DNA from: Candidatus Obscuribacterales bacterium
Lineage (GTDB): Bacteria; Cyanobacteriota; Vampirovibrionia; Obscuribacterales; Obscuribacteraceae
Assembly: GCA_965228855.1 (NCBI GenBank)
Contig: CBDDIJ010000003.1
Span: 2,624,001 to 2,688,000, forward strand
DNA: 64,000 bases
Direction: 5' to 3'
Part shown: positions 24,801 through 56,100 of the stretch, piece after piece
How the letters are laid out: every line of letters starts with the position of its first letter
Position numbering within the stretch: the first letter of the stretch is position 1
Notes under the pieces: generated by a model
Told to the model about the DNA's origin: nothing
What the model saw: only the letters and a program-made list of their open reading frames with translations
Databases searched by the model: none
Translations under genes and position numbers: made by a program

Positions 24801-25571
24801 CAAATCATCACAGAGAGTGAGAAGATCGGCGCTGCCCGCTTTGAAAATTTCTTCAATTGTAGCGACTCGACCATCGCCGAGAACAATTTCCGAATCGAAC
24901 GCAAGGCATTTACCCATCGACGGACGGGCAGCGATAATGACCAGGTCGGAGGGCTGGAATCCCGCTGTCATGGCATCGAGGTCGTAAAACCCGGACGGCA
25001 CGCCTGATAGCGCATCGCGATTTTCATAACGCGCTTCGATCTGCTGGAACGAAGTTTCGACGATGTGCTTCACGTGCACAAGCTGTTGCATCTCACGCTT
25101 TTGCGCGAGTTGGAAAATCATATGCTCGGCGCGATCGAGCGCCACGTCGGCATCGGGTTCTTCATAACAGCTGCCCACAATTTCTGTTCCAGCTTTGATG
25201 AGCTGGCGCAAAATTGCTTTTTCTTGAACGACTTTGGAGTAATACTCCAGGTTGGCGGTGGTTGCGACCGACAGCGATAGGTCCGTGATGTACTGCCGTC
25301 CGCCGACCATATCGAGCTTGCCCTCATCGGACAAGAACTGAGATACGGTCACGATATCGATAGGTTCGCTGCTCTCGTACAAGTCGAGCATCGCCGCGTA
25401 AATGACCTGGTGAGCCTTGCGATAAAAATATTCGGCTTCCAGAAGGTCGACGATTCGCGACACGCCATCGCCACTGCACAGTAGCGCTCCCAACACCGCC
25501 TGCTCGGCTTCGAGCGACTGCGGAGGCAGCCGTTCGAGTGTAGATTCGCCACTAAGTTCGCCGTCCATCAA
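21855..25571 (-). CDS. dnaB: Replicative DNA helicase DnaB precursor with two inteins
   Basis: PPQSLEAEQAVLG, AARPSMGK|T, FSLEMS, IDYIQL, SDLRESG|SIEQDAD, KQRNGP. Confidence 0.97.
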   Translation of the reverse strand: MMDGELSGESTLERLPPQSLEAEQAVLGALLCSGDGVSRIVDLLEAEYFYRKAHQVIYAAMLDLYESSEPIDIVTVSQFLSDEGKLDMVGGRQYITDLSLSVATTANLEYYSKVVQEKAILRQLIKAGTEIVGSCYEEPDADVALDRAEHMIFQLAQKREMQQLVHVKHIVETSFQQIEARYENRDALSGVPSGFYDLDAMTAGFQPSDLVIIAARPSMGKCLAFDSEIVLGDGRVATIEEIFKAGSADLLTLCDDLKLRIVQPSHFVDDGIKPVFRVTTRLGRSIETTLSHPFLTRAGWTRLEQIKVGDRIAIPRQIPIFGSKELRDCEVKVMALLAGDGSLRRGQVSFTNFNPMLQKDFQDAVAELQGKEALKRAAGYDAYERHAGINVSPRPTWLGSNPMSDWRESVGLPVNGAVTEIPSAAFTLPKRQLALFLNRLFASASRVSIDDDGDLQIAYVTSNERTAKQIQHLLLRFGVLSAVNRRVRFVDRRKQTFQLDIIEPNSIQKFLSKIGIFGVEELKAPYCEIDSDDADSISDIYWDEIVSIDAMGAKQIYDLTIPETHNFVSNDICVHNTALVLNLARAAAVENNVPVAIFSLEMSKESLVMRMLCSDAEIDANRLRTGHMHTSDWTKLATSMGRLGESPIYIDDSALCNALEIRAKCRRLKAEGGLGMVIIDYIQLMQGRKATDNRVQEVSEISRSLKQLAREVNVPVLALSQLSRAVEARQNKRPMLSDLRESGCLSGDTKIFLPDTGEYVRIDSLVGKTGFKVLALNVDTFKLEPREVTNSFCTGVKPVFELTTRLNRKITATANHKFLTISGWKRLDEMQVGERLAMPRTLPSVEVPSMLPAELKLLGLLIGDGCTLARHAIQYTSADEDLAIEAANLAVEIFGDQIKPRIKRERNWYQTYLPSAERLTHGKRNPIARWLDRLGIFNLRSSEKRIPDQVFCQPNSLIAVFLRYLWSTDGTISHRNSSPRIFYATSSPELARGVQSLLLRLGINARIVCVSQHNKGRDQFHVTISGQPEQLTFLQLIGLRDTRRQTVLERSINHLQALKPNTNRDLIPRETWYSLVEPARLASGQSTRAFQQGIGMSYCGTSLYKSSLSRERALRISKALDSPALSALAQSDIYWDEIVSIDSCGEMPVYDLTVDEHHNFVANDIVVHNSIEQDADLVMFIYRDEYYNPETDRRGEAEIIVAKQRNGPVGTVDLLYQGSITRFLNKVHTQYTGAEGGG
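22065..23342 (-). mobile_element. Intein (426 aa) at the LRESG/SIEQD site with a LAGLIDADG homing endonuclease
   Basis: Starts CLSGDT, ends IVVHN followed by S; block B TANHKF; LLGLLIGDG and FLRYLWSTDG motifs. Confidence 0.95.
23844..24908 (-). mobile_element. Intein (355 aa) in the DnaB P-loop (GK/T) with a degenerate LAGLIDADG domain
   Basis: Starts CLAFDS, ends ICVHN followed by T; TLSHPF; MALLAGDG present, but the second motif reads FLNRLFASAS. Confidence 0.93.
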
Positions 25572-39473: not shown

Positions 39474-39784
39474 TCCTACTATAATTTCTAAGAGCTGACA
39501 AGCCCCGAGAGTGCCTCAGAACAAACGTTTCGGGCTCACCTTCTTTCTTCGAGGCCGCTCTTGTCTATCAGGCAATGACGGAATTTGGGAAATCCGGCAT
39601 TCTGTCGTAGACAGCCCCTCCTACTACATTTCCTAAACACCCCTTCCTACTATATTTCCTAAGAAGTAACGAATCCCGAGAGTGAATCAGGACAATCGTT
39701 TAAGGATTCTCTGACTTCCTCGACGGAGTTGTTGTCTATCAGGCGATGCCGGAATTTGGAAAATCCGGCATTCTGTCGTAGACA
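39474..39784. repeat. Two diverged 140-nt direct repeats (39474-39613; 39645-39784)
   Basis: Both start TCCTACTATA and end TTGTCTATCAGGC.ATG.CGGAATTTGG.AAATCCGGCATTCTGTCGTAGACA; partial head copy at 39619-39636. Confidence 0.9.
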
Positions 39785-40145
39785 CTTACGGATCCGACCT
39801 CCCAGCGGACTACGTTTGACTGGCAAGTGTGCAGGAGATGATCATCTTTGCATCGATTTCGGATCGGATTTCTGCACATTCGAACCTCAGTCACCGATTA
39901 GGCGAACCGCAGTCGCCGATTAAGCGAACCAAAGTCGCCAATTTCGGATTTCAGATGCCGGAATTTGCTAATCCGGCATTCTGACGTAGTCACTTACGAA
40001 TCCGACCTCTCAGCGGACTACGTTTGACTGGCAAGTGTGCAGGAGATGATCATCTTTGCATCGATTTCGGATCGGATTTCTGCACATTCGAACCTCAGTC
40101 GCCGATTAGGCGAACCAAAGTCGCCAATTAGTCGCCGATTAAGCG
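39746..40145. repeat. Two near-identical ~163-nt direct repeats (39746-39908; 39955-40116) with 22-nt AGTCGCCGATTA.GCGAACC sub-repeats
   Basis: Directly visible sequence identity, period 209 nt. Confidence 0.92.
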
Positions 40146-41491
40146 TTCACACCACGCTCGCGAGAGATGCGACGAACATCAGACTGAACTTTGCGGCGGT
40201 AATCGCCGTGGATGTTGCGCCTGTCTTTGCCCCATTTGCCTTCTTCGGGAATACTCTCGACTTGAAATTTCAAGTTCTTGACCGTGTGACCCATTCCGAT
40301 TGCATCCGATGCACCTTGCGAAAGATCAATGACGCGGCTGTGAACTTTCTCGCCGCTACCGTCCGGACGCTCAACTTTTCGGCCGGCGAAGGGACCATGA
40401 TCGGTAACGACCACGCGAATTTCTCTGCCGTTATCAGGGTTAGTCACTTTCAGCACTGTGCCGAAAGGGAATTCTCTGCTGGCTGCAGTCAACTCGTACT
40501 TGTTGAACGGCAGTCCTGATGCCGTTTCACGTCCACTCCTGTACATAGAGGTCGTCCCCTCGAATCGATCCCCTTCGTTGTATCTCTTCAGAAACGGGCT
40601 TTTGAAGGCGCCTTCGGGTTTCTCACGAGAGGGACTAGAGTCATCGCTTCTTGGTTCTGGATTGACAGTCGGCTCTGGATTTATATCCGGTCGCCGCTCA
40701 GGCTTAGGCGCAGGTTCCTCCCGACGACGCGGAGCCGGCTTTTCATCCCGCTCTCGGCGAGGACGCTTATGTTCGGGTTGAGCGCTTGGCTCGAATTCCG
40801 CCGAGATCAAACGCTCGCGAATGCGATTGCGAAGACCCTCGTCTTGAATTGAATTTAAAACCTTTTCGACGTTTTGTTGCGTCAAAAGCGCGTCTCCGCG
40901 GCTCAGAACGTTACCATCACCATGTTCAGGATTAGATTTCCATTCTGATTTCAGAGCATTCGTAAAAGCCTTCTTCTCCTCATGACTAAAACCGTCGCCG
41001 AGAAGACGCGATGCAACCTGGTGATAGCCTTCTTTTTTACGAACCTTCGCAGCATCGAGTGTGTTGGTCTTCAGTTCGGTTGCCACCGCTGCCGGTGCGT
41101 CCTCCGGCTTCACAACTTCCGGTGCGGCGGCCCGCGCATCTCCCGGATCGGCTTCTCTGGGCGGCGTGGCTTTCTTTCCGGGCTCATCGGTGGAACCGGC
41201 TATGACATTGCCTTTCTCATCAGTTACGGCGACATCCGGCAGCGTGATCCCATCTCTTTTCGCGAACGCACCCATGATGTCCACAGGTTTGCCAGCAGCA
41301 AGATCAGCGACCGAGTTCGAGTCGAATTCCGGCAGTTTTCCAGTCGGGCCGAGTTCGCAGCGAGGGTCGTATTTGAAAACATCTTTGACTTGAGCAGGGT
41401 CGGAAAGGTCGACTCCAAGATTGGTTGCGCCACTTTTGGGCGTGTTTACCTCAGCGACACCGTCGCTGTGCTTCTGCACTTCAGATCCCAT
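40139..41491 (-). CDS. RlpA-like (DPBB) lytic transglycosylase domain protein with a long N-terminal region
   Basis: ETASG..F...ELTAASREFPFGTVLKVTN..VTDHGPF..RVIDLS. Confidence 0.85.
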   Translation of the reverse strand: MGSEVQKHSDGVAEVNTPKSGATNLGVDLSDPAQVKDVFKYDPRCELGPTGKLPEFDSNSVADLAAGKPVDIMGAFAKRDGITLPDVAVTDEKGNVIAGSTDEPGKKATPPREADPGDARAAAPEVVKPEDAPAAVATELKTNTLDAAKVRKKEGYHQVASRLLGDGFSHEEKKAFTNALKSEWKSNPEHGDGNVLSRGDALLTQQNVEKVLNSIQDEGLRNRIRERLISAEFEPSAQPEHKRPRRERDEKPAPRRREEPAPKPERRPDINPEPTVNPEPRSDDSSPSREKPEGAFKSPFLKRYNEGDRFEGTTSMYRSGRETASGLPFNKYELTAASREFPFGTVLKVTNPDNGREIRVVVTDHGPFAGRKVERPDGSGEKVHSRVIDLSQGASDAIGMGHTVKNLKFQVESIPEEGKWGKDRRNIHGDYRRKVQSDVRRISRERGVNA

Positions 41492-41881: not shown

Positions 41882-42688
41882 CTACGCAGTGATTGCGTGC
41901 GGCGTAACCGGCACAACACCTGCTGCAGGAACGAACGTGCCTTCCGTAACATTGTCCGCCGTTTGTGGGAACAAGTTGAGAGTGCGACACTCGGCATTCT
42001 GCCATTGCGCGCTAATCATGCCCTTCTTGTAGAGTTCTTGGTGAGTTGCGAAGAAGCAATATTTTGCCAAACTCGAATTCGACATTTGAGCGATCTTCGC
42101 TTGCAGAGCGGCTTGCGACTCATCGTCTCTAGTGACGATTAGAAGCATTTCGCAGCCTGCCTCGACTATTGACTTTTCCAGACCTGCAAGAGTTGCATCA
42201 TCGCAATCAGGATTGTTCGCGATTCCGATATCATATGCGATACCATTGCATTGGAATGAAACCTTTGCGTCCAGGTGGAATTTCGCTTTGTCTTCGCCTT
42301 TCACCGTCGACCATTTGATGTCAGAGGCTTTGCCTTCGTTCTTCGCGATTAGATAAAGCATCCGGATGTTGGCGACTTCGAGGTGATGACGCTGCCAATT
42401 CGCATCGAAGCGATCGGTATCATCTTGCTCTTTGCCGGAGACGCTCTTAGCCATCGGAGACAGCATGTATACGAGCGGTTTGGTCGGCGTCGTCCACCAC
42501 GGCAACTTGGTTCCGTGACGGTGACAGAGAAGATAATCGAGATAAAAGAGTTTTCTGAGACGATCTCTGATCAAGACTGGTTTGTCTTCTTCAGTGATGA
42601 ACCACGAAATATGTTTTTCCAACAAAACTTCGTGCTCATCTATCAAATTGAAGATGAGATGGTCTCTGTCATTGAGCTGAATAGCCAT
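41882..42688 (-). CDS. Replication-relaxation (Replic_Relax)-like wHTH protein with a degenerate C-terminal domain
   Basis: LNDRD..I..LI.EH.VL...RDRLRKL...YL...P.VY.LS...RHHLEVANIR resembles the family pattern; recognised by eye. Confidence 0.55.
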   Translation of the reverse strand: MAIQLNDRDHLIFNLIDEHEVLLEKHISWFITEEDKPVLIRDRLRKLFYLDYLLCHRHGTKLPWWTTPTKPLVYMLSPMAKSVSGKEQDDTDRFDANWQRHHLEVANIRMLYLIAKNEGKASDIKWSTVKGEDKAKFHLDAKVSFQCNGIAYDIGIANNPDCDDATLAGLEKSIVEAGCEMLLIVTRDDESQAALQAKIAQMSNSSLAKYCFFATHQELYKKGMISAQWQNAECRTLNLFPQTADNVTEGTFVPAAGVVPVTPHAITA

Positions 42689-42747: not shown

Positions 42748-43515
42748 CTAGCGGGTAGGTACTTGTCCGCCAACGCGTTTGATTTCTTCGATAGAAGGAT
42801 TGCCTTTTACGTATTGCTGCAGAGCGTCTGTCTGCTGTCTCATGTGGACGTGATATTTCATTCTCAAATCAGTGTCCAGAGCATAAATCCGCTTGTTGAG
42901 TTCTTTCAAACCCTTCGCTCTGTTGTGAATCGAGTCCAACCCTTCTTCTAACTCCTCCATAGTTTTCGCTGCGGGTCTGGGTTTTATCAGGTCCTCGTAT
43001 ACCGATGCTGAGTCCGCGTACCAATCGGCTACTAAGTTGACATAGTCTCTTATGTCGGTGGTGCCGGGTGGGAACTCTAACTTTCGGAGAACACCAGCGA
43101 GATATCTGTACTTCACAGCAACTTTCTTCGCGGTGTCTGTCCACTGCTGAACGCGCTCTGCCTCTTGATTGAAACCGCGGGTGAGGATCGCGGATTCACC
43201 TTGAGTTTTGCTGTAGCAGAAAACTGTCTGGTCGAAATTTTCGAACCATCTAACTACAGGATCATTGGGATTTGACATCATCGCCAATGCGCCCTGTTTG
43301 CCGAGCGGGTTCTCGGGAACCTCGGTGGCTTTGCGAATTCTTTCTTTGGCGGCAGCCGCTTCGCGAGCACCGCTATCAGAGTTGAATTCATCGTGCATCG
43401 GCTGGGCAGCTACTGCTGCGAAACCGAATGAGCTTGCTGTCAGCACCACGGCTGCAACTAATGCTGCTGCCACCTTCTTAGTTTTGATGCTGTCGTTGCG
43501 TACGCTCATTTCCAC
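42748..43515 (-). CDS. Hypothetical secreted alpha-helical protein
   Basis: KKVAAALVAAVVLTASS..AAVAA signal peptide. Confidence 0.7.
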   Translation of the reverse strand: MEMSVRNDSIKTKKVAAALVAAVVLTASSFGFAAVAAQPMHDEFNSDSGAREAAAAKERIRKATEVPENPLGKQGALAMMSNPNDPVVRWFENFDQTVFCYSKTQGESAILTRGFNQEAERVQQWTDTAKKVAVKYRYLAGVLRKLEFPPGTTDIRDYVNLVADWYADSASVYEDLIKPRPAAKTMEELEEGLDSIHNRAKGLKELNKRIYALDTDLRMKYHVHMRQQTDALQQYVKGNPSIEEIKRVGGQVPTR

Positions 43516-43612: not shown

Positions 43613-44578
43613 TTAATGTCCGTACAGTGGATCAACTGGTACGCCACTTCTGCCATTGCTACCGCTCGCTCCAGGTGTTGCCGGAGTATTCGGTCTCGAC
43701 ATGAATGCGTCTTGAACTTGTGATGGAGCCGGTCTCGATACGTTTTGCGCCGGCGTGTCGCTGTTGGCGTTATACGTATTCATTTGAACGATCTTCCAGA
43801 TAGTGTATGCGGAGAGGAGAAGCATCATCCCTGCGGCCGCGCCGAATACTCTGGAACCTCCATATGGATTACCCATGACCATCGAGTAGGCAGCCATCGA
43901 CATGAAGATCGTGGCACTGACTACACCGAGGATAACGAGATAACGCGAGAAGGTCCAAACCGTCGGAAGCGGATGGTCTGGAGTGTAGCCGTAAATGCTA
44001 TTGTGGTCCGGCTTCGGATAACCGTTGCCAGGCGCATCACTATCGATGAATTTGCGTCCGCCATTGTTGGTCGCTTGTGGATACGGAGCAAGAGCTTCGT
44101 TAATTTGTTCCATTTGCGCATCAGTCGCGGTAGCTTCAATTGTTTGTTCGCCCGAACGCATATTGACTCCGAGAATGCCCTCGATTTGACTGATGGCGTC
44201 GTTGCTCAAAGTGTCGGGACGAATTGTGGTGACCTGTCTTTCGCCGCGCGCTCCGTTGTGAAATACACGGACGGTGCTGCGGTCGCGACCTTCACCTGTT
44301 GGAAAACTGTGACCGGGAGTGGCATCAGAGGTTCCAGACGGAACATTCTGGGCGCCGCCCGCATCACCAGGGGTGACTGCAGGAGGCGCGGTGCCGTCGC
44401 CGACCGGTGGTGGCGCAGGTGGTGCGAACTGAGCATTAGCGGAGACCGAAAAACCGACGGAGAAGAGCACGGCAACCGCGAGGGCTAAAACGCTTCTCGT
44501 CAGGCTGTCCTTGTTTCTCATCTTCACTTGCATGTCCTTCGTGTCCTCGTAAAATAACTTGTTCGTTTCCTGTCTCAC
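43613..44578 (-). CDS. Exported/membrane protein with a C-terminal two-helix T4SS-pilin (VirB2/TrbC)-like segment
   Basis: Signal peptide (SANA|Q); YLVILGVVSATIFMSMAAYSMVMG-NPYGGSR-VFGAAAGMMLLLSAYTIW; abuts the rpoB-like stop; true start may be an ATG slightly inside. Confidence 0.55.
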   Translation of the reverse strand: MRQETNKLFYEDTKDMQVKMRNKDSLTRSVLALAVAVLFSVGFSVSANAQFAPPAPPPVGDGTAPPAVTPGDAGGAQNVPSGTSDATPGHSFPTGEGRDRSTVRVFHNGARGERQVTTIRPDTLSNDAISQIEGILGVNMRSGEQTIEATATDAQMEQINEALAPYPQATNNGGRKFIDSDAPGNGYPKPDHNSIYGYTPDHPLPTVWTFSRYLVILGVVSATIFMSMAAYSMVMGNPYGGSRVFGAAAGMMLLLSAYTIWKIVQMNTYNANSDTPAQNVSRPAPSQVQDAFMSRPNTPATPGASGSNGRSGVPVDPLYGH

Positions 44579-47500
44579 TTATCGGTCCGGAGTCGATCCA
44601 CCATCATTGCCGCTGGTGTCGGTTCCAACATGAACTTTTTGAGGTGCTCGTGTGATTGTCATCAGCTCTTGAGCGAGGTTCTGCAATTCACTCAGCGAAG
44701 GGAAGTCGAATAATGGATCTTCCTTGCTGTCGAGCTCCGGTGCTATCAGACTGGACAGCTCAGCAGACGGCGCCGGCTTGGTTTCTTCAACGATTGAGAT
44801 TTTAAGGTCATCATCGTCAGGTCCAAAGAAGCTGTCACCGAGGATGGTGTCAACGAAGTCGTCAACACTTTTTGTACCTGCGGGACTGACTTCTTGCTCA
44901 CTACCCTGGAGATTTGCTGGCTCATCAATGTCATCAATCAAAGACTCCTGTGTGCTGAGTTCGAACTGTGGTTTTCTTCCGTTTCTGCCATTTGTCATGG
45001 ATGTGATCATCGGCAGTCTAGGTGCTCGTACAACTGGCTCGTAGTCGCCACCCGGAATTTCGAGAATCTTCTGACCTTCCGCATTTTCGAGCATGTGAAC
45101 AGAGGACACTTGCAAGGTTTCTTCCAGTGTCGCGTCCTCCGGAAGCGCGATTCTCGAACAGGTTCTGTCGGGCACTGGTTCGAAACTGTCGACCACTCTT
45201 CCGAGCGTGACTTCAAGACCGAGACCGCGAATCTCGCAGCAGAGTCCGTCGAAAGCCGCGGTACGGCTGCCGTTTTGAACATTCTTGCCCTGCACCATAT
45301 CGGTGTAAGCCTGGTGTCTGCCCTGGATGTCGTCGGCTTTGATGGTCATCATCTCGTGAAGGATGTTTGCCGCACCATAAGCTTGAACAGCCCATACTTC
45401 CATTTCGCCCATGCGCTGACCGCCGTGGTTGGCTTTTCCGCCGACCGGCTGTTGAGTGACCGCGGCGTAAGGACCGCCGAGACCGCAACGAGCGTTGACT
45501 TTGTGGAGAACCAACTGGTTCAACTTGAGCATGTACTGGCGTCCGACAAGAACTGGTCTGTCGATTTTTTCACCGGTTCTGCCGTCGGTCAGAATGACTT
45601 TGCCGTCTTCGCCGAACCACTCGTAGCCTGGAGTCTTACGAACTTCAGCCAGTGCTTCCTTGACCAATCTATATGAAGCGTCATCACTGAGAGATTCATC
45701 GAATTGGTGAATGCGGTAATAGCGATTGAGAATATCGGAATAAAGTCCGAGCTGAGTGTCGAACACCTGACCGACGTTCATACGGGACGGTACGCCGAGG
45801 GAGTTGAGCACCAGGTCGACCGGAGTACCGTCGGGAAGGAAAGGCATATCTTCATCGGGAACAATGTTCGCGACGATACCTTTGTTTCCGTGACGTCCAG
45901 CCAGTTTGTCGCCAACTTCAACAGGGCACATTCTTGCGATCAGAACTTCGATTTCGCAGATCACACCAGCTTTCATTTCAGGTGTGGTTTCCGGCGTGAA
46001 GATGCGAACGTCGATTACGCGACCGCCCGAACCATGTGGAACTCTCAAGCTGCTATCGCCCATTTCTTCAGCGACCTTTCCGAAGATTGCCTGAAGCAAT
46101 TCTTCTTCGGAGCTCAATGCGCGATGCTCTTTAGGTGTCAGTTTCGAAACAAGCACATCGCCGGCTTCAACATAAGCGCCGATTTTTGCGATACCACGCT
46201 CATCGAGATGCTCGAGATCTTTGGATGAAACGTTGGGCAATTCCGGTGTGAGAATTTCAGGTCCTCTCAAAGTTTGATAAACGTTGAGCGAATGTTTCTC
46301 GATTTCGATGTGGGTGAGTTTTTGATCGCGAACGAGACCACGACGGACGACGATAGCATCCTCATAGTTGTATCCGCCCCACGGCATGAACGCGATTAAT
46401 AGGTTTCGGCCCAGAGCCAATTCACCTTTGTCGATGCCAGGTCCGTCTGCGATGATTTCGCCGGCTTCAACTTTTTGTCCGAGCGAAACCGATGGACGTT
46501 GGTCGAGAATCGTATTCTGGTTGGTGCGATCGAAACGAGTGAGATTGTAAGCGCGCTTCTCACCGGAAGCTTGCGTGATCTCAATGTTCTGTCCGCTCAC
46601 TTGAGTGACGGTGCCACCACGACGAGCAGTGATCGAATGTCCGGACGAACGAGCCACGATTTTTTCCATGCCCGTTCCAACACGTGGGCGCTCAGGGCGC
46701 ACCAGCGGTAGAGTTTGGCGCATCATCCCGCCACCCATCAGGGCGCGTCCCGTATCATCGTGCTCGAGGAATGGGATCAAACCTGAACCAACTGAGAGGA
46801 AACCTTGCGGCGTGATCCCCATCATGTCGACCTGCTCGGGAGTTACCTCGATGAGGCTTTCTCCGCGACGAGCTGCGACCAGCGGTCCGAGAATTTTGCC
46901 ATCAACACAACGAGTGTCAGGCGGTGCAAGAGTGTATTTCTTATCGTCGGATGGTGTGAGGAATTGCACTTCATCAAGCAAGTAGCCATTCTTCACTTTG
47001 CGATAAGGCACGGTCAAGAAACCATCATCATCGATACGGCAGTAGCTGGCGAGGTACGAAACCATACCGCAGTTCTTACCTTCAGGCGATTCTACGAGAC
47101 AGACCCGACCGATTTGCGACGGGTGAACGTCACGCATTTCGACAGGTGCTGCGTTCGGATCGATACCGCCAGGTCCGAAGGATGTGATTCTTCTTCTGTG
47201 CGAAAGTTCCGAAAGAGGATTTTGTTGATCGAGATACTGAACGAGCGGGTTGCCCGAGAAGTATTTAGTGATTGCGTTGGAGAAAGGTCTCGTGTCGATC
47301 AAATCGTTAGGACTGCCGATCTCTTCGTCTTCGTTGAGTTCGAGTTTCATCTTGATCGAACGGGTCATCTGACCGAGAGCCGGGCGAACAGCTTTGAGCA
47401 TTGTCTCGCCAACACCACGAAGGTGTCTGTTTTCCAGGGAGTCGATGTGATCGATAAAACCCATATCTGAAGGAAGACCGAGAAGATACTCGATTGCTGC

Positions 47501-48370
47501 CATCAAATCGGAAGGGCTGAGTTGCTTGTTCTCGCCATCCAAACCCAGTTTGCGGTTGAAACGGCTGCGTCCAAGTTTGCCGAGGCTATAACGACGCTTG
47601 TCGAACAGTTCACCAAGTGCGGTATTACCTGCACCGGAACCGCCGCCGCCGTCCGGCTTCCAGCCTCTGCCTACGACAGAGAGAGCTTCAGCCTGGGTGA
47701 TTTCTTTCCACTCGATGCGGCTGCGATCGAGAAGTTTTCCGAGACGTTTTTGGATATCTTGTGCGTCAAAGCCCATTGCGGTCAGAAGCGTGGTGCATGC
47801 AATCCACGAACGCTTCGGAAGTTTGACTCTGCACTTAGAACGGCTAGCTTTACCAGGAGTGACTTGCGGATCGATTACGAGTTCGAATGCGATAGGCGCG
47901 CCTTGCTCTGCAAGCATCAGACCTTTGTAGGTGTTGCCTGCCGGTTGGCTGAAGTAGATGCCGGGAGCGCGGACGAGTTGACCGAGGACAACGCGTTCCG
48001 ATCCGTTGATGACGAATGTACCGCGGTCGGTGATGACGGGCATGTCTGCGATGTAGCATTTCGACTTGCGCAGTTCACCAGTTACGGTATCACGCAACCA
48101 TGCTTCCATCATCAGACGACGAGCGTGAGTCATGTTGGTCTTTCGAGCTTGCTCTGCGGAATTCGGATATCCGGAATCCGGAGCATAGTCTTCGAACCAC
48201 CATTTGACTTTGCCATCTGGTCCGACAAAAGTAAGTTCAAATCTGGGGGAGAGGTCACTCGAGATGGGCGAGATTTCAGCGAAGAGATTACCAATTGTCT
48301 CTTCGAGGAAACGCCGATAAGAACGTCTCGGGAACTCTGCCAAATCTGGTGCTTGGAAAAAGAAACTCAT
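44579..48370 (-). CDS. rpoB: Divergent DNA-directed RNA polymerase beta-subunit paralog with a ~200-aa acidic C-terminal extension
   Basis: GTFVINGSERV, GPGG, ESPEG, LIPFLEHDD, GYNYEDA, GDKLAGRHGNKG, GVPSRMNVGQ, GGQRMGEMEVWA; no rplL or rpoC adjacent. Confidence 0.93.
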   Translation of the reverse strand: MSFFFQAPDLAEFPRRSYRRFLEETIGNLFAEISPISSDLSPRFELTFVGPDGKVKWWFEDYAPDSGYPNSAEQARKTNMTHARRLMMEAWLRDTVTGELRKSKCYIADMPVITDRGTFVINGSERVVLGQLVRAPGIYFSQPAGNTYKGLMLAEQGAPIAFELVIDPQVTPGKASRSKCRVKLPKRSWIACTTLLTAMGFDAQDIQKRLGKLLDRSRIEWKEITQAEALSVVGRGWKPDGGGGSGAGNTALGELFDKRRYSLGKLGRSRFNRKLGLDGENKQLSPSDLMAAIEYLLGLPSDMGFIDHIDSLENRHLRGVGETMLKAVRPALGQMTRSIKMKLELNEDEEIGSPNDLIDTRPFSNAITKYFSGNPLVQYLDQQNPLSELSHRRRITSFGPGGIDPNAAPVEMRDVHPSQIGRVCLVESPEGKNCGMVSYLASYCRIDDDGFLTVPYRKVKNGYLLDEVQFLTPSDDKKYTLAPPDTRCVDGKILGPLVAARRGESLIEVTPEQVDMMGITPQGFLSVGSGLIPFLEHDDTGRALMGGGMMRQTLPLVRPERPRVGTGMEKIVARSSGHSITARRGGTVTQVSGQNIEITQASGEKRAYNLTRFDRTNQNTILDQRPSVSLGQKVEAGEIIADGPGIDKGELALGRNLLIAFMPWGGYNYEDAIVVRRGLVRDQKLTHIEIEKHSLNVYQTLRGPEILTPELPNVSSKDLEHLDERGIAKIGAYVEAGDVLVSKLTPKEHRALSSEEELLQAIFGKVAEEMGDSSLRVPHGSGGRVIDVRIFTPETTPEMKAGVICEIEVLIARMCPVEVGDKLAGRHGNKGIVANIVPDEDMPFLPDGTPVDLVLNSLGVPSRMNVGQVFDTQLGLYSDILNRYYRIHQFDESLSDDASYRLVKEALAEVRKTPGYEWFGEDGKVILTDGRTGEKIDRPVLVGRQYMLKLNQLVLHKVNARCGLGGPYAAVTQQPVGGKANHGGQRMGEMEVWAVQAYGAANILHEMMTIKADDIQGRHQAYTDMVQGKNVQNGSRTAAFDGLCCEIRGLGLEVTLGRVVDSFEPVPDRTCSRIALPEDATLEETLQVSSVHMLENAEGQKILEIPGGDYEPVVRAPRLPMITSMTNGRNGRKPQFELSTQESLIDDIDEPANLQGSEQEVSPAGTKSVDDFVDTILGDSFFGPDDDDLKISIVEETKPAPSAELSSLIAPELDSKEDPLFDFPSLSELQNLAQELMTITRAPQKVHVGTDTSGNDGGSTPDR

Positions 48371-50808
48371 TAGTTGCCACCAGCCTTAGCGTCTTCCGTG
48401 TTGGTTGTAGTTCCGTCGTTATTAGACATTACTGACCTTTTGTGAGTAGCTAGAGCCCGCGCCAAGTCATCGGCGTAGGTCTTGATTCCTGGCTTCAATG
48501 CACTTGCTATTCTGAATTCGGTGACTGCTTCGCTTATTCTTCCTGCTGCCATCAGGTTGACGGCTAGTCGGTGGTGATTTGAAGCATTCTCCAGGTCTGT
48601 CGCTACCACATCTCTTAAAATTGCCACCGCCGCCATATGATCTTTTCGAGATTCGGCTTGGGTCACTTCGATGAGCTTTGGGTCTTCCTGAGTGGTTGCG
48701 GAACCCGTCCCAGTTGGAACATTTCCATTATCGTTACCGGGAGCCCCGCCGTAAATGGTGGAATCCACCTGTCCAGTGGGAATACTACGTACTCCATTTT
48801 CGGCTCCCATCGGCTGGGCATTTCCGGGTTGAACAGCTACCTGGTTCGGAGCAAAATTTTGTTGAGGTCGAAAACTGGCCGCAGTCGGAGCGACACCACC
48901 GCCAGGAGCTCCCTCGTAAACGCCTTTGTTCATCTGTGGCGGCACGCCGAAGTTGTTGGTCGCCATCTGCGACGCGCCGAAACTTTGCGGTGCAACACCA
49001 CCTTGCGGATTCACTCCAGTGGGCGCCATACCGTTTGGAACCATCCCGTTTGGAACCATACCGTTGGGAGCCACGCCTGTCATCATCGGAGATTGAACTG
49101 GTGCACGGTTCTGCATGTTCATGGGCGAACCCATCTGCATACCGGGTTGGGGCATCCCTTGCGGAGGCATACCCTGTTGCATCTGCTGCGGCATACCCAT
49201 GGGAGCGCCCATATGCATGCCTGGCGCCATGCCCTGCGACATGTTTTGAGGCATGCCCGTTGACATGTTTTGCGGCATTCCTTGTGGCATTTGCTGAGGT
49301 ATATGCTGCGGAGGACGCTGAGTCATTTGCGGCGGCATTGCGGCGCCGCCAGGTTTAGATCCTGAATTCTGCATCTCCTTCATACGGGCTGCAGCTTCTT
49401 TGTTTTTCTCCGGGTCTATCAGAACGCATGTGAGATAAGCCTGGTGTGCGCCTTTGTAATCGCCGACAGCTTCCAGACACTCTCCCAGAAGAAACTGATA
49501 ACGCGCATTGCGAGGCTCAATCATGACAGCCTGAGACACTTCAGCCAGTGCCTCTTTGCGCAGTCCTTGCGAGAACAAAGTCTCGGCGGCTTTCTTATGC
49601 TTCTCCGCTCGGCCGTGTTGATATGATTTTTGCAGACTGGCTCTGCCGTCGGCCAGTCCGGGATGGTTGGCATTTATGACTTCCAGTTTCTTATACTCAG
49701 CTTCGGCACCGGCATAGTCGCCAGTCAACTGGAGAGCGCCTGCGTACCCGAGGTGGAAGTCCGGGTTCAGCGGATTCTTCGCTACTTGCTTGCGCCATAT
49801 CTCAACCAGTTGAGAGCCGGCCAGAGCATCAGTGTCGTCGAGAATGACGGCTTTGCGAAGCAATGCAGCTGCGCCTGTTTCATCTTTCTGGAGTAGCTTC
49901 ATGATGCCGAGCTGACGTTGTGCCGGTCCGTAGTTGGGATCTTTGACTGCCGCCTGCTGGTAGCATTGCAACGCTTGCCCTGTCTGTCCCCAGCGGTACT
50001 GCAAGTCTCCGAATTTCACGTAAACTTTTGCCGACGGGTCAATCTCCATCGCCTGTTTGTACTCGACGTAAGCGCCTTCGAGGTCATTAGCGTTGATGAG
50101 CTGATCGCCTATGCCAAGTCGAGCATCTGCATCGACCGGGTCAATGCCTTGCTTCTCGAGCGCCGAAGAAAGTCCTTTGACCGCCCGAGCGTTGGAATAC
50201 TCAGCGAACAGCGCCTTTCTGTACATGGTTGCGGCGCCTGCCGAATCACCGACCTTCGCTTTGTAGTCGGCGAATGCTGTGCGCGCAGCGCTCAGATTCA
50301 GCTTGTACTGTTTGTTCGTGGGGTCGTACTGCACGGCTTTCTCGTGCATCGCGATGGCGTCGACCCATTTGCCTTGAGAACCAAAAGCGACACCCTGGTT
50401 GTTGAACTCAATGGCATCGGATTTGTATTTCGCATACGTCTCGGTACGCTTCTTGTCGGCTTTTTCACGAGCCGCTTCTGCCTCTTTCTTGGCGAGTTCA
50501 GCGTCTGCAGCCTTTTTGGCTTCGTCTTCTTTCTGCTGTTTCTCGAGATCACGATAATCAGGTCGTCTCTTGAAACGGCTGAGCGCAGGTGCATGGTACT
50601 GCGCGTCGTTTTCAAAATCTTTTTCACCGCGGCTCGACTGAGTGTCAGCGCTGGCGCGCGGTAGCGGTTTTGCGTTTAGCTTCGTAGCACTGGCTGCTTG
50701 AGAGCAAGAGAGTGAGAGAGTTAACGCCAGAAGAACGAGTGTGAGGGGTTTGCTATACATCAACATTGGAAAAAGAACGGGAGGTTTTGAGGGGTAGTTA
50801 GTCGGCAA
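48370..50808 (-). CDS. Secreted TPR protein with a Gln/Pro/Met/Gly-rich linker
   Basis: Signal peptide, many TPRs; TAATG stop/start overlap with the rpoB-like gene. Confidence 0.85.
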   Translation of the reverse strand: MPTNYPSKPPVLFPMLMYSKPLTLVLLALTLSLSCSQAASATKLNAKPLPRASADTQSSRGEKDFENDAQYHAPALSRFKRRPDYRDLEKQQKEDEAKKAADAELAKKEAEAAREKADKKRTETYAKYKSDAIEFNNQGVAFGSQGKWVDAIAMHEKAVQYDPTNKQYKLNLSAARTAFADYKAKVGDSAGAATMYRKALFAEYSNARAVKGLSSALEKQGIDPVDADARLGIGDQLINANDLEGAYVEYKQAMEIDPSAKVYVKFGDLQYRWGQTGQALQCYQQAAVKDPNYGPAQRQLGIMKLLQKDETGAAALLRKAVILDDTDALAGSQLVEIWRKQVAKNPLNPDFHLGYAGALQLTGDYAGAEAEYKKLEVINANHPGLADGRASLQKSYQHGRAEKHKKAAETLFSQGLRKEALAEVSQAVMIEPRNARYQFLLGECLEAVGDYKGAHQAYLTCVLIDPEKNKEAAARMKEMQNSGSKPGGAAMPPQMTQRPPQHIPQQMPQGMPQNMSTGMPQNMSQGMAPGMHMGAPMGMPQQMQQGMPPQGMPQPGMQMGSPMNMQNRAPVQSPMMTGVAPNGMVPNGMVPNGMAPTGVNPQGGVAPQSFGASQMATNNFGVPPQMNKGVYEGAPGGGVAPTAASFRPQQNFAPNQVAVQPGNAQPMGAENGVRSIPTGQVDSTIYGGAPGNDNGNVPTGTGSATTQEDPKLIEVTQAESRKDHMAAVAILRDVVATDLENASNHHRLAVNLMAAGRISEAVTEFRIASALKPGIKTYADDLARALATHKRSVMSNNDGTTTNTEDAKAGGN

Positions 50809-51007
50809 ACTCGCAACCTCGCTCGGTTCGCCGAATGTGAGCCCAGCTTAAGGTTATACGACGGCATAGTCCATTGGGGGATATCCCACCCCCTTCGTAA
50901 ATCTCCCACAATTCACATTAAAATTGCGAAGCCGCAACGCAAGTGAATTCCGACAGACGTTTTCAAAACCGAAAAATTTTACGGACGATTCGCCCACCTT
51001 ATAAATG

Positions 51008-52198
51008 TTATTCATCGTCGCTTTCTTCTGAATCATAGTCATCGTCATCTTCACGATAGCCGCCCAGTCCGACGCCGACCAGTTTCGTCTCGCCTTTCAC
51101 CTTCTTGAGCTCTTGTGGCGGATAGCCGCAGTATTCTTCCATGTAGTTGGCGAGGTCAGTTGAATGCGTTGTCAGCCAAATCTGAGTGGTTTCAGAAGCG
51201 GTGGCTAGCAATCTGGCGAGTGGTTCATACAAACTTGGATGAATACTTGTTTCCGGTTCATTTATTGCAAGAAGAGACGGCGGTGTCTTGCTGAAGATAG
51301 CGGCCAGCAAACAGAGATACTGGAGGGTGCCGTCGGAAAGTTCGTGCGCGTCGAGCGGTCGTTCCAGACCGGGCATGGTCATTCGCAATTTCAAGCCCGC
51401 GTTGGATAAACCTATCTGCAAGTCGCTTTCGGGAAACGCATCTTTTAGTGCTTTAAAAAGCTTCGGTGCGTCGCCGTACTCGATGATGGTTGCAAGAGCT
51501 GAAACGAAATCGCTGCCGTCATGCGCCATAATGTCGGTGCGAACGGCAATTTGAGGTCGGCGCAATGGCGAACTCTTGTCTGTTCTGAAGTGATGGTAAA
51601 AACGCCAGTTGAGAAGTTCGAGCCGGAGCATCGACAACTCCGGGAATTTAAGCGGATCTCTGACGCCGGTAAAAATCGACTCGTTGGGCGCGACGCGCAT
51701 CGAGTAATCGCTGTTCTGTTTTTCAACAACATCGCGAACGCTTACCTCCATACCCTTGCGTTTCAAAAGCATTGACTTGGAGCCATTTTTCAAACGAAAC
51801 AGTTTCTCACTTTTAATTTCGACATCATTTCGAAATATCGTGTTGCCGGCGCCGTGAACTAAAACGCGACCCATCTCGGCATAACCCGTTCGATAATCGC
51901 CAGACACGTAGCCACACTCGAGATCGTATTGCAGGTCATCGACCTTTACCGAAAGTGTCATTGAAATTGGGTCTTTCTTGGAATAAGCGCCGCACCACAA
52001 TGACGAGTCCATGCCGCCTTCTTCACCTATAGAGCGTGCAAACTGACCGCTGGCGATGGTCGACATAAGATATAGTGCGCGATAGAGATTGCTTTTGCCG
52101 CAACCGTTCGGTCCGACAAAAACGTTGACTGGATTGAGTTTCAACCAGATGTCTTTGACCGAGCGATAGTGTTTGATTTGAAAATCTTTGAGCGCCAC
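51008..52198 (-). CDS. ABC/SMC-like AAA ATPase (COG4637-like), copy 2
   Basis: GPNGCGKSN, WRFYHHFRTD, LSDGT, NEPETSIHP, TTHS. Confidence 0.88.
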   Translation of the reverse strand: MALKDFQIKHYRSVKDIWLKLNPVNVFVGPNGCGKSNLYRALYLMSTIASGQFARSIGEEGGMDSSLWCGAYSKKDPISMTLSVKVDDLQYDLECGYVSGDYRTGYAEMGRVLVHGAGNTIFRNDVEIKSEKLFRLKNGSKSMLLKRKGMEVSVRDVVEKQNSDYSMRVAPNESIFTGVRDPLKFPELSMLRLELLNWRFYHHFRTDKSSPLRRPQIAVRTDIMAHDGSDFVSALATIIEYGDAPKLFKALKDAFPESDLQIGLSNAGLKLRMTMPGLERPLDAHELSDGTLQYLCLLAAIFSKTPPSLLAINEPETSIHPSLYEPLARLLATASETTQIWLTTHSTDLANYMEEYCGYPPQELKKVKGETKLVGVGLGGYREDDDDYDSEESDDE

Positions 52199-52201
52199 CG
52201 G

Positions 52202-53401
52202 CTAGTCCTCCGGCTCGTTTTTCTTCAACGCGGCACGATAAGCCCGTACCGCAGCCGCGTCGTCATCCTCGACTTCGGCTCTGGCACTGCGAACCTCTTC
52301 GCCCCTGATCACAGTTTCACCTGCAACTTTTTCCAGCTCGATAATTTTGCAATTGCCCTGCGCCTTAACGTGTTGAGCCAATTCGGAGGAATGAGTTGTG
52401 ATAAGCAGTTGCGAGCGCCTTGATGCTGCAACTATCAATTCAGCAAGCGGCTGAGCGAGGTCCACATGCATGCTGGTCTCCGGTTCGTTGAAAACCATAA
52501 AGGATGCGGGTCTCGGTGTCAGCAATGCAGCAAGCAAACACAGGTATTGCAAAGTTCCATCGGACAATTCCCGAGCGTGAAGAGGACGAGCAAGTCCGGG
52601 ATATTCCATGTATAAGCACAATTCACCATCATCTTCAACGATTGAAACAGACGCACCCGGAAATGCCCGGTCGACAAATTGATCGAACTCTTGCGCACTG
52701 CCTATGGTGCGAATCGTGGCTACCACAGCAGCAAGATCGCTGGCATCATGGCTCAAAATCGGCGTCATCGAGGCGAGTTGGTTTCTCCTCACAGGTGATT
52801 GCAAGTCGGTTCTAAAATCGTGGTAGAAGCGCCAGTCGGCAAAAAGCATGCGAAGAGAAGAGAGCTCAGGAAATTTTTCTGGCTCTCGAAGTTCAGACAA
52901 GACGCTTTCGTTCTTCAACAACTTCACCGGGTAGTCGACAGTACGTCCCTCCAGATTCTTTGCTCGAACAGAATTTCCTTTCCTGCTAAACAGTGCGATT
53001 GGTTTTTCTCCAGTCAACTCAACGGTCTCGACTTTGATATCCGGGTCGTCTTTGAACAGGCGCAGCCCCTCGCCGAATTGACCGTCGCTCGGACGCTCGC
53101 TAATAGCGATTCTTCCAAATTCCATTTCGTATTGGAGCTTATCAAATTTGATCGCGAGACGCGTTCTATGGTCATCTGAAACATGGCGATGTCCCGCCCA
53201 TGAAAGTGAGGGGACGCCCCCTTCCTCGGCGACTCTTCGAGCAAATTGCCCATGAGCAGCGCTTCCTAGAAGTTGAATAGCTTGGTAGATGTTGCTTTTG
53301 CCACAACCGTTCGGCCCGACCAGAATAGTTATGCCGCCGAGTTTCAGTTGAAACTCCCGCAAAGAGCGATAACCGCTGATTTCAATTTCGCGAATTTGCA
53401 T
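52202..53401 (-). CDS. ABC/SMC-like AAA ATPase (COG4637-like), copy 1
   Basis: GPNGCGKSN, WRFYHDFRTD, LSDGT, NEPETSMH, TTHS. Confidence 0.88.
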   Translation of the reverse strand: MQIREIEISGYRSLREFQLKLGGITILVGPNGCGKSNIYQAIQLLGSAAHGQFARRVAEEGGVPSLSWAGHRHVSDDHRTRLAIKFDKLQYEMEFGRIAISERPSDGQFGEGLRLFKDDPDIKVETVELTGEKPIALFSRKGNSVRAKNLEGRTVDYPVKLLKNESVLSELREPEKFPELSSLRMLFADWRFYHDFRTDLQSPVRRNQLASMTPILSHDASDLAAVVATIRTIGSAQEFDQFVDRAFPGASVSIVEDDGELCLYMEYPGLARPLHARELSDGTLQYLCLLAALLTPRPASFMVFNEPETSMHVDLAQPLAELIVAASRRSQLLITTHSSELAQHVKAQGNCKIIELEKVAGETVIRGEEVRSARAEVEDDDAAAVRAYRAALKKNEPED

Positions 53402-55236: not shown

Positions 55237-56100
55237 TTGGACCCAGGATTACAACCAATGTCAAGCGGACCACCTCAGAGACCTCCTTCAGTCTTTAGAC
55301 CACGAACGGTCCTGTGTGAGCGGCACGAACTCATCCGATTCGGCTTGAGACGCGTGGTATCAGAAGTAGTTGAGATCGTCGGTGAAGCATCGGACGGAAT
55401 GGCCGCGACAGAACTGATTCGTCGCATGCGCCCGGATTTCATCATAATGGACGTCGACCTCGACGTTCTCAACGGCGTAGAAGTCTGCCGCAGAGTAGCG
55501 CAAGAATTGCCGAACTCACACGTCCTGGTTCTCACAGATTCGTATCACGCCACCAAGTATCACAACCAGCTGATTCGCGCAGGCTCGCGGGGATTCTGCC
55601 TTAAGAGTTCAGGTCCGAGAACCTTGTTCGAAGCGATTGAACAGGTCACGCGCGGATTGCCCTACTGTGATCCCAAGATTACGCAACTGGTCAAGCAACA
55701 ACCGACGACCAGTATGCCGAACAGCAATCTCACCGATCGCGAAATCGAAGTTCTCATTCGTCTTGACTTGAGAAACAAGGAAATTGCAGAGGAGCTTGAC
55801 ATGAAGCTCCGCACTGTAGAAAAACACATCGAGTGCATCCTGGCAAAGCTCAAGGTTCCGACTAGAACGGCAGCAGCACTTAAAGCCGTGCAATTGGGAT
55901 ACGTTCTATTACCCAAGATGCCGGGTCGCGATCCGGTCACAGGCATCAGCCACGAGCAAACAGTGGCAGAGCTGCAAGCGGAGCTGGCAATTGCCAACGA
56001 GCACCTGAAGGCACTCTTGAGACAGAATGAACTTCTGAAAGAAGCTTTGAACGACAAATTAAGACGTCCTCAGCAGCCACCGCGACCGGAAAACGAGTAA
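55237..56100 (+). CDS. NarL/LuxR-family response regulator with a C-terminal coiled coil
   Basis: IIMDVDL, CLKS, LTDREIEVL..NKEIAEEL..TVEKH..KL. Confidence 0.88.
   Translation: MDPGLQPMSSGPPQRPPSVFRPRTVLCERHELIRFGLRRVVSEVVEIVGEASDGMAATELIRRMRPDFIIMDVDLDVLNGVEVCRRVAQELPNSHVLVLTDSYHATKYHNQLIRAGSRGFCLKSSGPRTLFEAIEQVTRGLPYCDPKITQLVKQQPTTSMPNSNLTDREIEVLIRLDLRNKEIAEELDMKLRTVEKHIECILAKLKVPTRTAAALKAVQLGYVLLPKMPGRDPVTGISHEQTVAELQAELAIANEHLKALLRQNELLKEALNDKLRRPQQPPRPENE

Follow-up and report, generated by a model that had tools for sequence, protein, structure and literature searches.

What does a bacterium do with a second, strongly diverged β subunit of RNA polymerase? The question is raised by a gene at 44579..48370 on the minus strand of the window, the whole 64,000-nucleotide stretch of an Obscuribacterales genome that was analysed, which is ordinary chromosome with dnaK, thrS, dnaB, folC and pyrF-like genes and a level GC content throughout. 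The gene is here called rpoB2 and its product β2. To our knowledge, bacteria have one core RNA polymerase, which is diversified by sigma factors, and the exceptions we know of are close duplicates. The reading that we prefer, and to which we give a probability of roughly 60% on the evidence of sequences, is that β2 is co-induced with a type IV secretion system (T4SS), joins the single set of α and β′ subunits and would thereby yield an active enzyme with altered properties.

The first-pass annotation of the locus had described a full-length, uninterrupted RpoB-like frame, and this description holds: rpoB2 is a single open frame of 1263 amino acids (aa) in which five RpoB Pfam domains are matched in order and which exceeds the cut-offs of the NCBIfam rpoB models (1055 vs 896 and 1008 vs 801). 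The protein thus belongs to RpoB by domain set and curated score, and the fold search agrees, the best matches of a single-chain model of residues 1-1130 (mean predicted local distance difference test score, pLDDT, of 70; moderate confidence) being cyanobacterial β subunits. All eight motifs quoted at first pass are present in the frame. Residues 1-1058 only can be aligned with RpoB, the remainder forming an acidic tail, and the housekeeping RpoB of the same genome likewise ends in such a tail. In the family's housekeeping RpoB (L001:14267-18151) the acidic C-terminal tail reaches up to about 200 residues, and most other Cyanobacteriota in the alignment lack it.

There are exactly two RpoB-like genes in the genome. 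The canonical rpoB, found on contig C5 and followed there by rpoC1 and rpoC2, keeps the usual motifs, and rpoB2 is 43% identical to it over 1065 residues; rpoB2 is neither the single copy nor placed directly upstream of rpoC, as a housekeeping gene would be, and the concern that it might be the only rpoB of its genome falls away. It is flanked by a TPR gene, whose stop codon overlaps its start (TAATG), and by a membrane-protein gene. The earlier remark that neither rplL nor rpoC adjoins it is correct for both genes, but the absence of rplL is not diagnostic, because the housekeeping rpoB also lacks rplL directly upstream (among open reading frames, ORFs, of at least 110 aa). The word "orphan" has to be given up, since rpoB2 stands second in a conserved operon of five genes. 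The genes rpoA, rpoC1 and rpoC2 occur once each, rpoA on the same 3.76-Mb contig as rpoB2 and about 60 kb from it. A diverged second β′ was sought in this genome by a profile search of the frames, which gave RpoC1 and RpoC2 only, with the NADFDGD motif found once, and none of 85 genomes of the order showed a second RpoC1 (82 with exactly one match, three with none). The genome also has 19 matches to sigma70 region 2, encodes Mfd and contains no match to a separate CarD. The single RpoA (L218:2578-3672) shows an apparent Met/Ser/Gly-rich N-terminal extension of about 50 residues.

The paralog is a property of a whole family, which belongs to the non-photosynthetic kin of cyanobacteria, and not of one genome. 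Orthologs of rpoB2, at about 68-100% identity, are present in at least 77 of the 83 genomes of the host family, likely Obscuribacteraceae, the source genome included (family counts from an order-wide search rest on the listed matches of at least 69% identity, beside which there were 38 weaker ones). Among the six family genomes without it, two (G006 and G050) retain the three genes that follow rpoB2 in the operon, at the start of a contig, and in one (G085) the operon promoter lies 3 kb from where a contig starts; the remaining three have no such explanation. In the sister family one genome out of three has rpoB2, on a 4.5-kb contig that is possibly misbinned. In a sample of 120 genomes from elsewhere in the phylum no match rose above 54% identity, and 7 of them had no match whatever. 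Named database records 75-90% identical to rpoB2 are assigned to Obscuribacteraceae, Obscuribacterales or unclassified Cyanobacteriota, which makes the host a likely member of Obscuribacteraceae. No sequences intermediate between paralog and canonical gene emerged: the best 120 of 7996 matches comprise 106 clusters at 70-93% identity and then a gap down to 44%. A possible second partial rpoB, at 51% identity, was seen in genome G164.

Over the core of rpoB2 the ratio of nonsynonymous to synonymous change (dN/dS) is 0.019-0.094, compared with 0.010-0.052 for the canonical gene, in 15 chosen pairs whose dS is partly saturated. The canonical locus elsewhere, the intact orthologs across the family, neither absent nor decayed as might have been feared, and the low dN/dS together show a second β subunit under purifying selection, as had been proposed. 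In genome G013 (contamination 8%) there are two copies of the paralog operon (L142 and L135) with a dN/dS of 0.09 between them, and this genome may be a mixed bin. That rpoB2 is an artefact, whether of a contaminant contig, a prophage or a duplicate in decay, might be suspected from the contamination estimate of the source genome (5.8%) and from the four split copies among 41 loci, but the idea can practically be dismissed, as it is refuted by the family-wide presence and the low dN/dS; the gene moreover stands on the 3.76-Mb contig with the only rpoA, amid housekeeping genes, GC content is level across the window, the paralog subtree largely mirrors the canonical one, and the best matches in phage collections are ordinary rpoB genes about 40% identical. 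The multisubunit polymerases of phages and mobile elements offer no better home for a gene with a fixed chromosomal neighbourhood, no second β′ and no close phage match.

The paralogs form one clade in both trees, at the base of Cyanobacteriota and on a stem of 1.7-3.5 changes per site, a basal placement of the kind that is often wrong for long branches, and their subtree largely mirrors the canonical subtree. The approximately unbiased (AU) test rejects neither sisterhood with the family's own rpoB (p 0.28) nor sisterhood with Cyanobacteriia (p 0.20), and it does reject a grouping with Bacillota/Chthonomonas (p 0.005). Near residue 60 there is a 7-residue insert, the position of which is shared only with Obscuribacterales and with three of six other Vampirovibrionia; this favours, without settling it, a duplication within the class and, after it, a burst of change. 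Counts of diagnostic residues are uninformative on origin, with 1 of 7 order-specific and 9 of 24 outgroup-specific residues matched. In the reading that we prefer, rpoB2 is an ancient, vertically inherited second β subunit.

Which parts of the subunit have been retained was read from an alignment of 39 paralogs, 41 canonical copies of the order and 36 outgroups, in which a column conserved in at least 95% of the non-paralogs was taken as near-universal (positions in E. coli numbering). The first-pass annotation had pointed to changes of near-invariant residues, and the changes it quoted are fixed across the family with two exceptions, HDDTG and DHIDS, which are local variants; the paralog consensus at these sites is HDDANRALMGGGMMRQ and DNIDSLENRH. 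The paralogs keep 245 of the 396 near-universal columns, and the kept columns are unevenly spread, amounting to 31 of 38 in region 1051-1150, 4 of 11 in 351-400 and 25 of 57 in 451-550. R678, M681, Q688, E813, D814, K1065, K1073 and R1106 are kept in all 39 paralogs, and we take R678, M681, Q688, E813, D814 and R1106 to serve in binding metal, the nucleoside triphosphate and the RNA end. The contacts to the non-template strand and the fork are replaced (W183P, D199P, R371K, R540P, R542A); in the G pocket, R151, D446 and R451 are retained. At the flap tip, which presumably binds sigma region 4, all 39 paralogs have the hydrophobic L901, L902 and F906, and the charges are altered (K900E, R903Q, E908K, K909V). 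The IKE motif, described as Mfd-binding in the accessible part of 10.1101/728246, is LRK in the paralog. In E. coli, according to the available text of the respective papers, W183A makes the half-life of the promoter complex about fivefold shorter without slowing elongation (PMC4499132), and R542A halves consensus pausing (PMC6336406). As read from the alignment, the overall pattern is that of an engine kept and of DNA- and factor-facing surfaces rebuilt.

The same alignment brings up an explanation of another kind, namely that β2 is kept in reserve as a subunit that withstands antibiotics aimed at the polymerase, as the actinomycete rpoB2 and rpoB(R) do. Seven positions assigned to the rifamycin pocket are fixed to another residue (V146L, Q510P, S512V, F514Y, S531T, L533F, I572V), as are three assigned to the switch-region pocket (E1279Q, L1291M, S1322A). 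We nevertheless consider this quite unlikely: H526 (39 of 39), D516, Q513 and R529 are kept, the changes are spread along the whole chain, and both the operon and the promoter shared with the T4SS would be left unexplained; resistance may be a side effect. The second rpoB copies of actinomycetes are close to the main copy. In Nonomuraea gerenzanensis (rpoB(R)) and Nocardia (rpoB2) a second β gene is credited with resistance, and in Nonomuraea with a global transcriptional switch too, in the available text of PMC5431353 and PMC10719064; the former attributes the action of such copies to substitutions in the rifamycin clusters, chiefly H526N. As in these actinomycetes, two β genes coexist here; unlike theirs, rpoB2 is 43% identical to its counterpart, keeps H526, is family-wide, has its own operon and shares a promoter box with a T4SS, and it is thus no close paralog altered mainly in the rifamycin clusters by H526N-type changes.

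Other comparisons are similarly partial. With the housekeeping RpoB of Cyanobacteriota, rpoB2 has the domain order, compact architecture and fold in common, but it lacks a linked rpoC, has 88 of 396 near-universal columns replaced and sits on a long stem. Plant Pol IV and Pol V are specialised polymerases made by duplicating a catalytic-core subunit, with the rest in common and with an extra docking tail; they are eukaryotic, whereas rpoB2 is bacterial. Francisella also has, genus-wide, a divergent duplicate of a core subunit, and its α1 and α2 have both been studied as a heterodimer in one enzyme (accessible part of PMC3294249); β is present once per enzyme, so that a second β implies two types of enzyme, unlike the Francisella case. 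No example of a bacterial second β at this divergence was found in the literature searched.

The surroundings of rpoB2 are conserved too. In the relatives' paralog loci (n=41) the recurring order is TPR protein, rpoB2, membrane protein, exported-looking helical protein and winged-helix protein, each partner being present in 38 or 39 of the 41, with most misses at contig ends. In the window all five genes lie on the minus strand. The first (48370..50766; 39 of 41 loci) encodes a TPR protein of 798 aa with a signal-peptide-like N-terminus. After rpoB2 comes a conserved 306-aa protein (43613..44533; 38 of 41) with a signal-like N-terminus, a Pro/Gly region and two hydrophobic helices, which matched no Pfam family and shows weak profile matches (E 1e-6 to 5e-8, in a low-complexity region) to two secreted proteins of a T4SS cluster; its identity as a VirB2/TrbC pilin was considered and set aside, as no pilin family in Pfam matched. 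The conserved 251-aa protein that follows (42748..43503; 39 of 41) has a signal-like N-terminus, belongs to no family found, and its atlas matches are all below 0.9. The last gene (41882..42688; 39 of 41) encodes a protein with a winged-helix and a restriction-endonuclease-like fold, the model of which (pLDDT 84) matches winged helix-turn-helix and FokI/BamHI-type folds. With an atlas score of 0.94 to a Replic_Relax cluster and a profile that weakly reaches two PF13814 proteins, yet with no Pfam match to PF13814 (Replic_Relax), this protein is, judging by such similarities, a distant relative of that family and not a Pfam member, and it is a candidate DNA-binding partner. Its gene is present in 31 of 32 family genomes vs none of 118 others of the class. 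A NarL/LuxR-type response regulator, assigned by Pfam, is encoded at 55237..56100 on the plus strand and as a rule diverges from the operon: it lies upstream on the opposite strand, at 82-96% identity, in 33 of 41 loci.

A hint of function comes from the operon promoter (50845..50908, minus strand), in which a distal TGGGA-N4-TACG is followed 20-21 nt downstream by a proximal quasi-palindrome TGGGA-N4-[T/C]CCCA and then by a -10-like TAAGCT. The proximal box overlaps a -35-like hexamer, and the promoter is predicted to be of an activator-dependent sigma70 type, as far as the roles of its elements can be inferred. A GGGA-N4-[T/C]CCCA box precedes the TPR gene in 38 of 38 loci examined, usually with a second half-box about 21 bases upstream and with a TAAGCT-like hexamer 18-20 bases downstream, and the 8-mer CCCCAATA occurs in 22 of 27 loci, where 50 shuffles gave 5 at most. 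A matrix trained on rpoB2-operon promoters only, with the own genus left out, ranked the rpoB2 operon first in this genome and the promoter of a T4SS operon second. The latter site lies 129 bases before genes for a DUF2225-like protein, a VirB4-like ATPase, a small membrane protein, a VirD4-like coupling protein and a true Replic_Relax protein. In the 260 bases before the T4SS operon of 20 relatives, TGGGA-N4-TCCCA is found in 12 with at most one mismatch and in 15 with at most two, often in tandem, counts that overstate independence because the relatives are kin, four of them of one genus. The corresponding background is 32 and 306 of 4076 upstream windows in this genome, and canonical rpoB upstream regions carry the box in 0 and 2 of 41. 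One box pattern was derived from the T4SS site and is not independent, and it matched that site only here and in the nearest relative. These shared boxes suggest that the rpoB2 operon and the T4SS operon may be co-regulated. Perfect TGGGA-N4-TCCCA boxes number six in the genome (C2:2072014, C2:2223429, C5:274880, C5:644606, C5:723140 and C5:1396728), all outside long ORFs, which cover 78% of it, and 35-150 bases before genes, several of which have no known family; they alone are clearly non-random, and they likely mark an undescribed regulon. Boxes with one mismatch (47 outside and 88 inside long ORFs) were rejected as members, being mostly background, and a Pfam survey of the genes beside them was set aside for that reason.

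The VirB4-like gene was found in 21 of 21 family genomes and 2 of 2 of the sister family, and in none of 87 other genomes of the class (E<=1e-30). T4SS-like clusters were seen at two places in the genome. One, chromosomal (G000:C3:3042900-3065600; L216, L221), has VirB4-like, VirD4-like and Replic_Relax genes, a 1899-aa membrane protein and two near-identical small pilin-like genes, and its VirB4-like gene, 74-80% identical across the order, was not found in the other Vampirovibrionia searched. A second, order-wide cluster (G000:C2:1984000-2007800; L261) includes a VirB4-like paralog of about 32% identity, a DUF2225-like gene, two very large membrane or secreted proteins and TPR genes, with no VirD4 in the stretch read.

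A promoter box common to the rpoB2 and T4SS operons would also fit the idea that β2 is itself cargo, delivered into prey, host or recipient (a cyanobacterium, a plastid or another bacterium) where it joins the resident polymerase and poisons or redirects it. The architecture of β2 is of the cyanobacterial type, and its tail contains a helical motif, FPSLSEL..LA (about residues 1230-1243), that is specific to the paralogs, conserved in 33 of 39 of them and present in 0 of 41 canonical copies by a stricter pattern, which could serve as a docking signal. For the related predator Vampirovibrio a T4SS has been proposed, not shown, as the attack organ (available text of PMC4451040). Still, such delivery appears improbable. 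No other protein of the genome matches the tail motif significantly, which rules it out as a common secretion signal; a dN/dS near the housekeeping level would not be expected of an arms-race effector; a predatory lifestyle of Obscuribacteraceae was not found in the literature searched; and the T4SS here is probably not the Vampirovibrio system, because its VirB4-like gene is unmatched in the 87 other genomes of the class.

We return to a β2 that would work inside the cell, probably replacing the housekeeping β in a fraction of the RNA polymerase together with the single α and the split β′. A transcription factor, perhaps the neighbouring NarL-type regulator or the winged-helix protein of the operon (putative target TGGGAATATTCCCA), would bind the TGGGA-N4-TCCCA boxes and co-induce the rpoB2 and T4SS operons. 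β2 would then assemble with α2 and RpoC1/RpoC2 into an enzyme that is catalytically active but from which the non-template-strand contacts (W183P, R371K, R540P, R542A) have gone, as have the motif for Mfd docking (IKE to LRK) and the charges usual at the flap tip. Given these losses, it might pause less, and it might open other promoters, favour other sigma factors or depend on a helper; its response to Mfd would be altered, and it would run a programme of the contact or secretion phase. A bolder version, in which the family, as a bacterial parallel to Pol IV/V, has two RNA polymerases by a swap of β and the second, without non-template-strand and Mfd grip, is dedicated to the T4SS, where it transcribes or primes secretion-linked and possibly single-stranded DNA or is injected into prey and takes over the polymerase there, is something we put forward tentatively, its odds falling somewhat below even.

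Several findings weigh against an active enzyme tied to secretion. Although eight of nine active-site and RNA-end residues are kept, H1237 is Q in 39 of 39 paralogs; D1240, D1241, H1244, E1279, L1291 and P1320-E1321-S1322 are also replaced, and with these replacements neither activity nor fit to β′ is guaranteed. H1237 touches the primer phosphate together with K1065 and K1073, according to the accessible part of 10.1101/2021.04.06.438613. Among the 396 near-universal columns, 88 are fixed to another residue and 63 more are variable. The gene is split or frameshifted in 4 of 41 loci (G004, G016, G018, G061), where assembly error and decay cannot be told apart. The region upstream of the T4SS lacks the box, even at two mismatches, in 5 of 20 relatives, and two of three sister-family genomes have the T4SS with no paralog found in them. 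Finally, of the four partners in the operon, three appear to be exported or membrane-bound, which is ill-suited to polymerase cofactors. The residue changes raise the prospect that β2 assembles but is catalytically weak or dead, acting as a decoy or sink for α, β′ or sigma that damps housekeeping transcription when secretion starts, and the fixed H1237Q, R540P, D1241H and H1244N, a two-residue insert before switch 3 and the many lost DNA contacts would suit it. We find this unlikely, as the invariance of eight active-site residues across 39 diverged copies would not be expected of a decoy and the barrel region is the best kept.

In the literature searched, which lay outside supplements and most subscription papers, no description of the paralog, the operon or the box motif was found, and two rpoB papers on this group (10.1101/2020.02.28.969766 and 10.64898/2026.08.25.746930) make no mention of the paralog in their accessible parts; rpoB2 is thus real, conserved and apparently undescribed. 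It is a far variant of a duplicated rpoB, and it would be categorically new if it proved to be part of a dedicated second polymerase or an exported subunit. If the proposal is true, a 43%-identical β kept by strong selection across about thirty genera represents a second layer of control at the catalytic core. The paralogs are also a set of natural mutants of the near-invariant residues W183, R540, R542 and H1237. For the poorly known Obscuribacterales, the shared promoter box points to a regulon and a secretion system that are as yet undescribed. Both copies are annotated alike as "RNA polymerase subunit beta" in the protein database, and rpoB-based trees and counts for the group can therefore be misled.

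Several further features of the window were noted. Tandem AAA_21 (AbiEii-like) ATPases at 51008-53401 lie between the regulator and the operon, a position in which they were seen only in the own genus. At 40139-41491, close to the operon on its downstream side, is an RlpA-like double-psi barrel protein; its N-terminus is long and of low complexity, and a signal peptide is not obvious. At 39570-39900 there is a short repeated element or an assembly break, where contigs of two runs end or branch. The DnaB helicase at 21855-25571 is 1238 aa long and has intein and LAGLIDADG matches, and the counts of Pfam stretches suggest two inteins.

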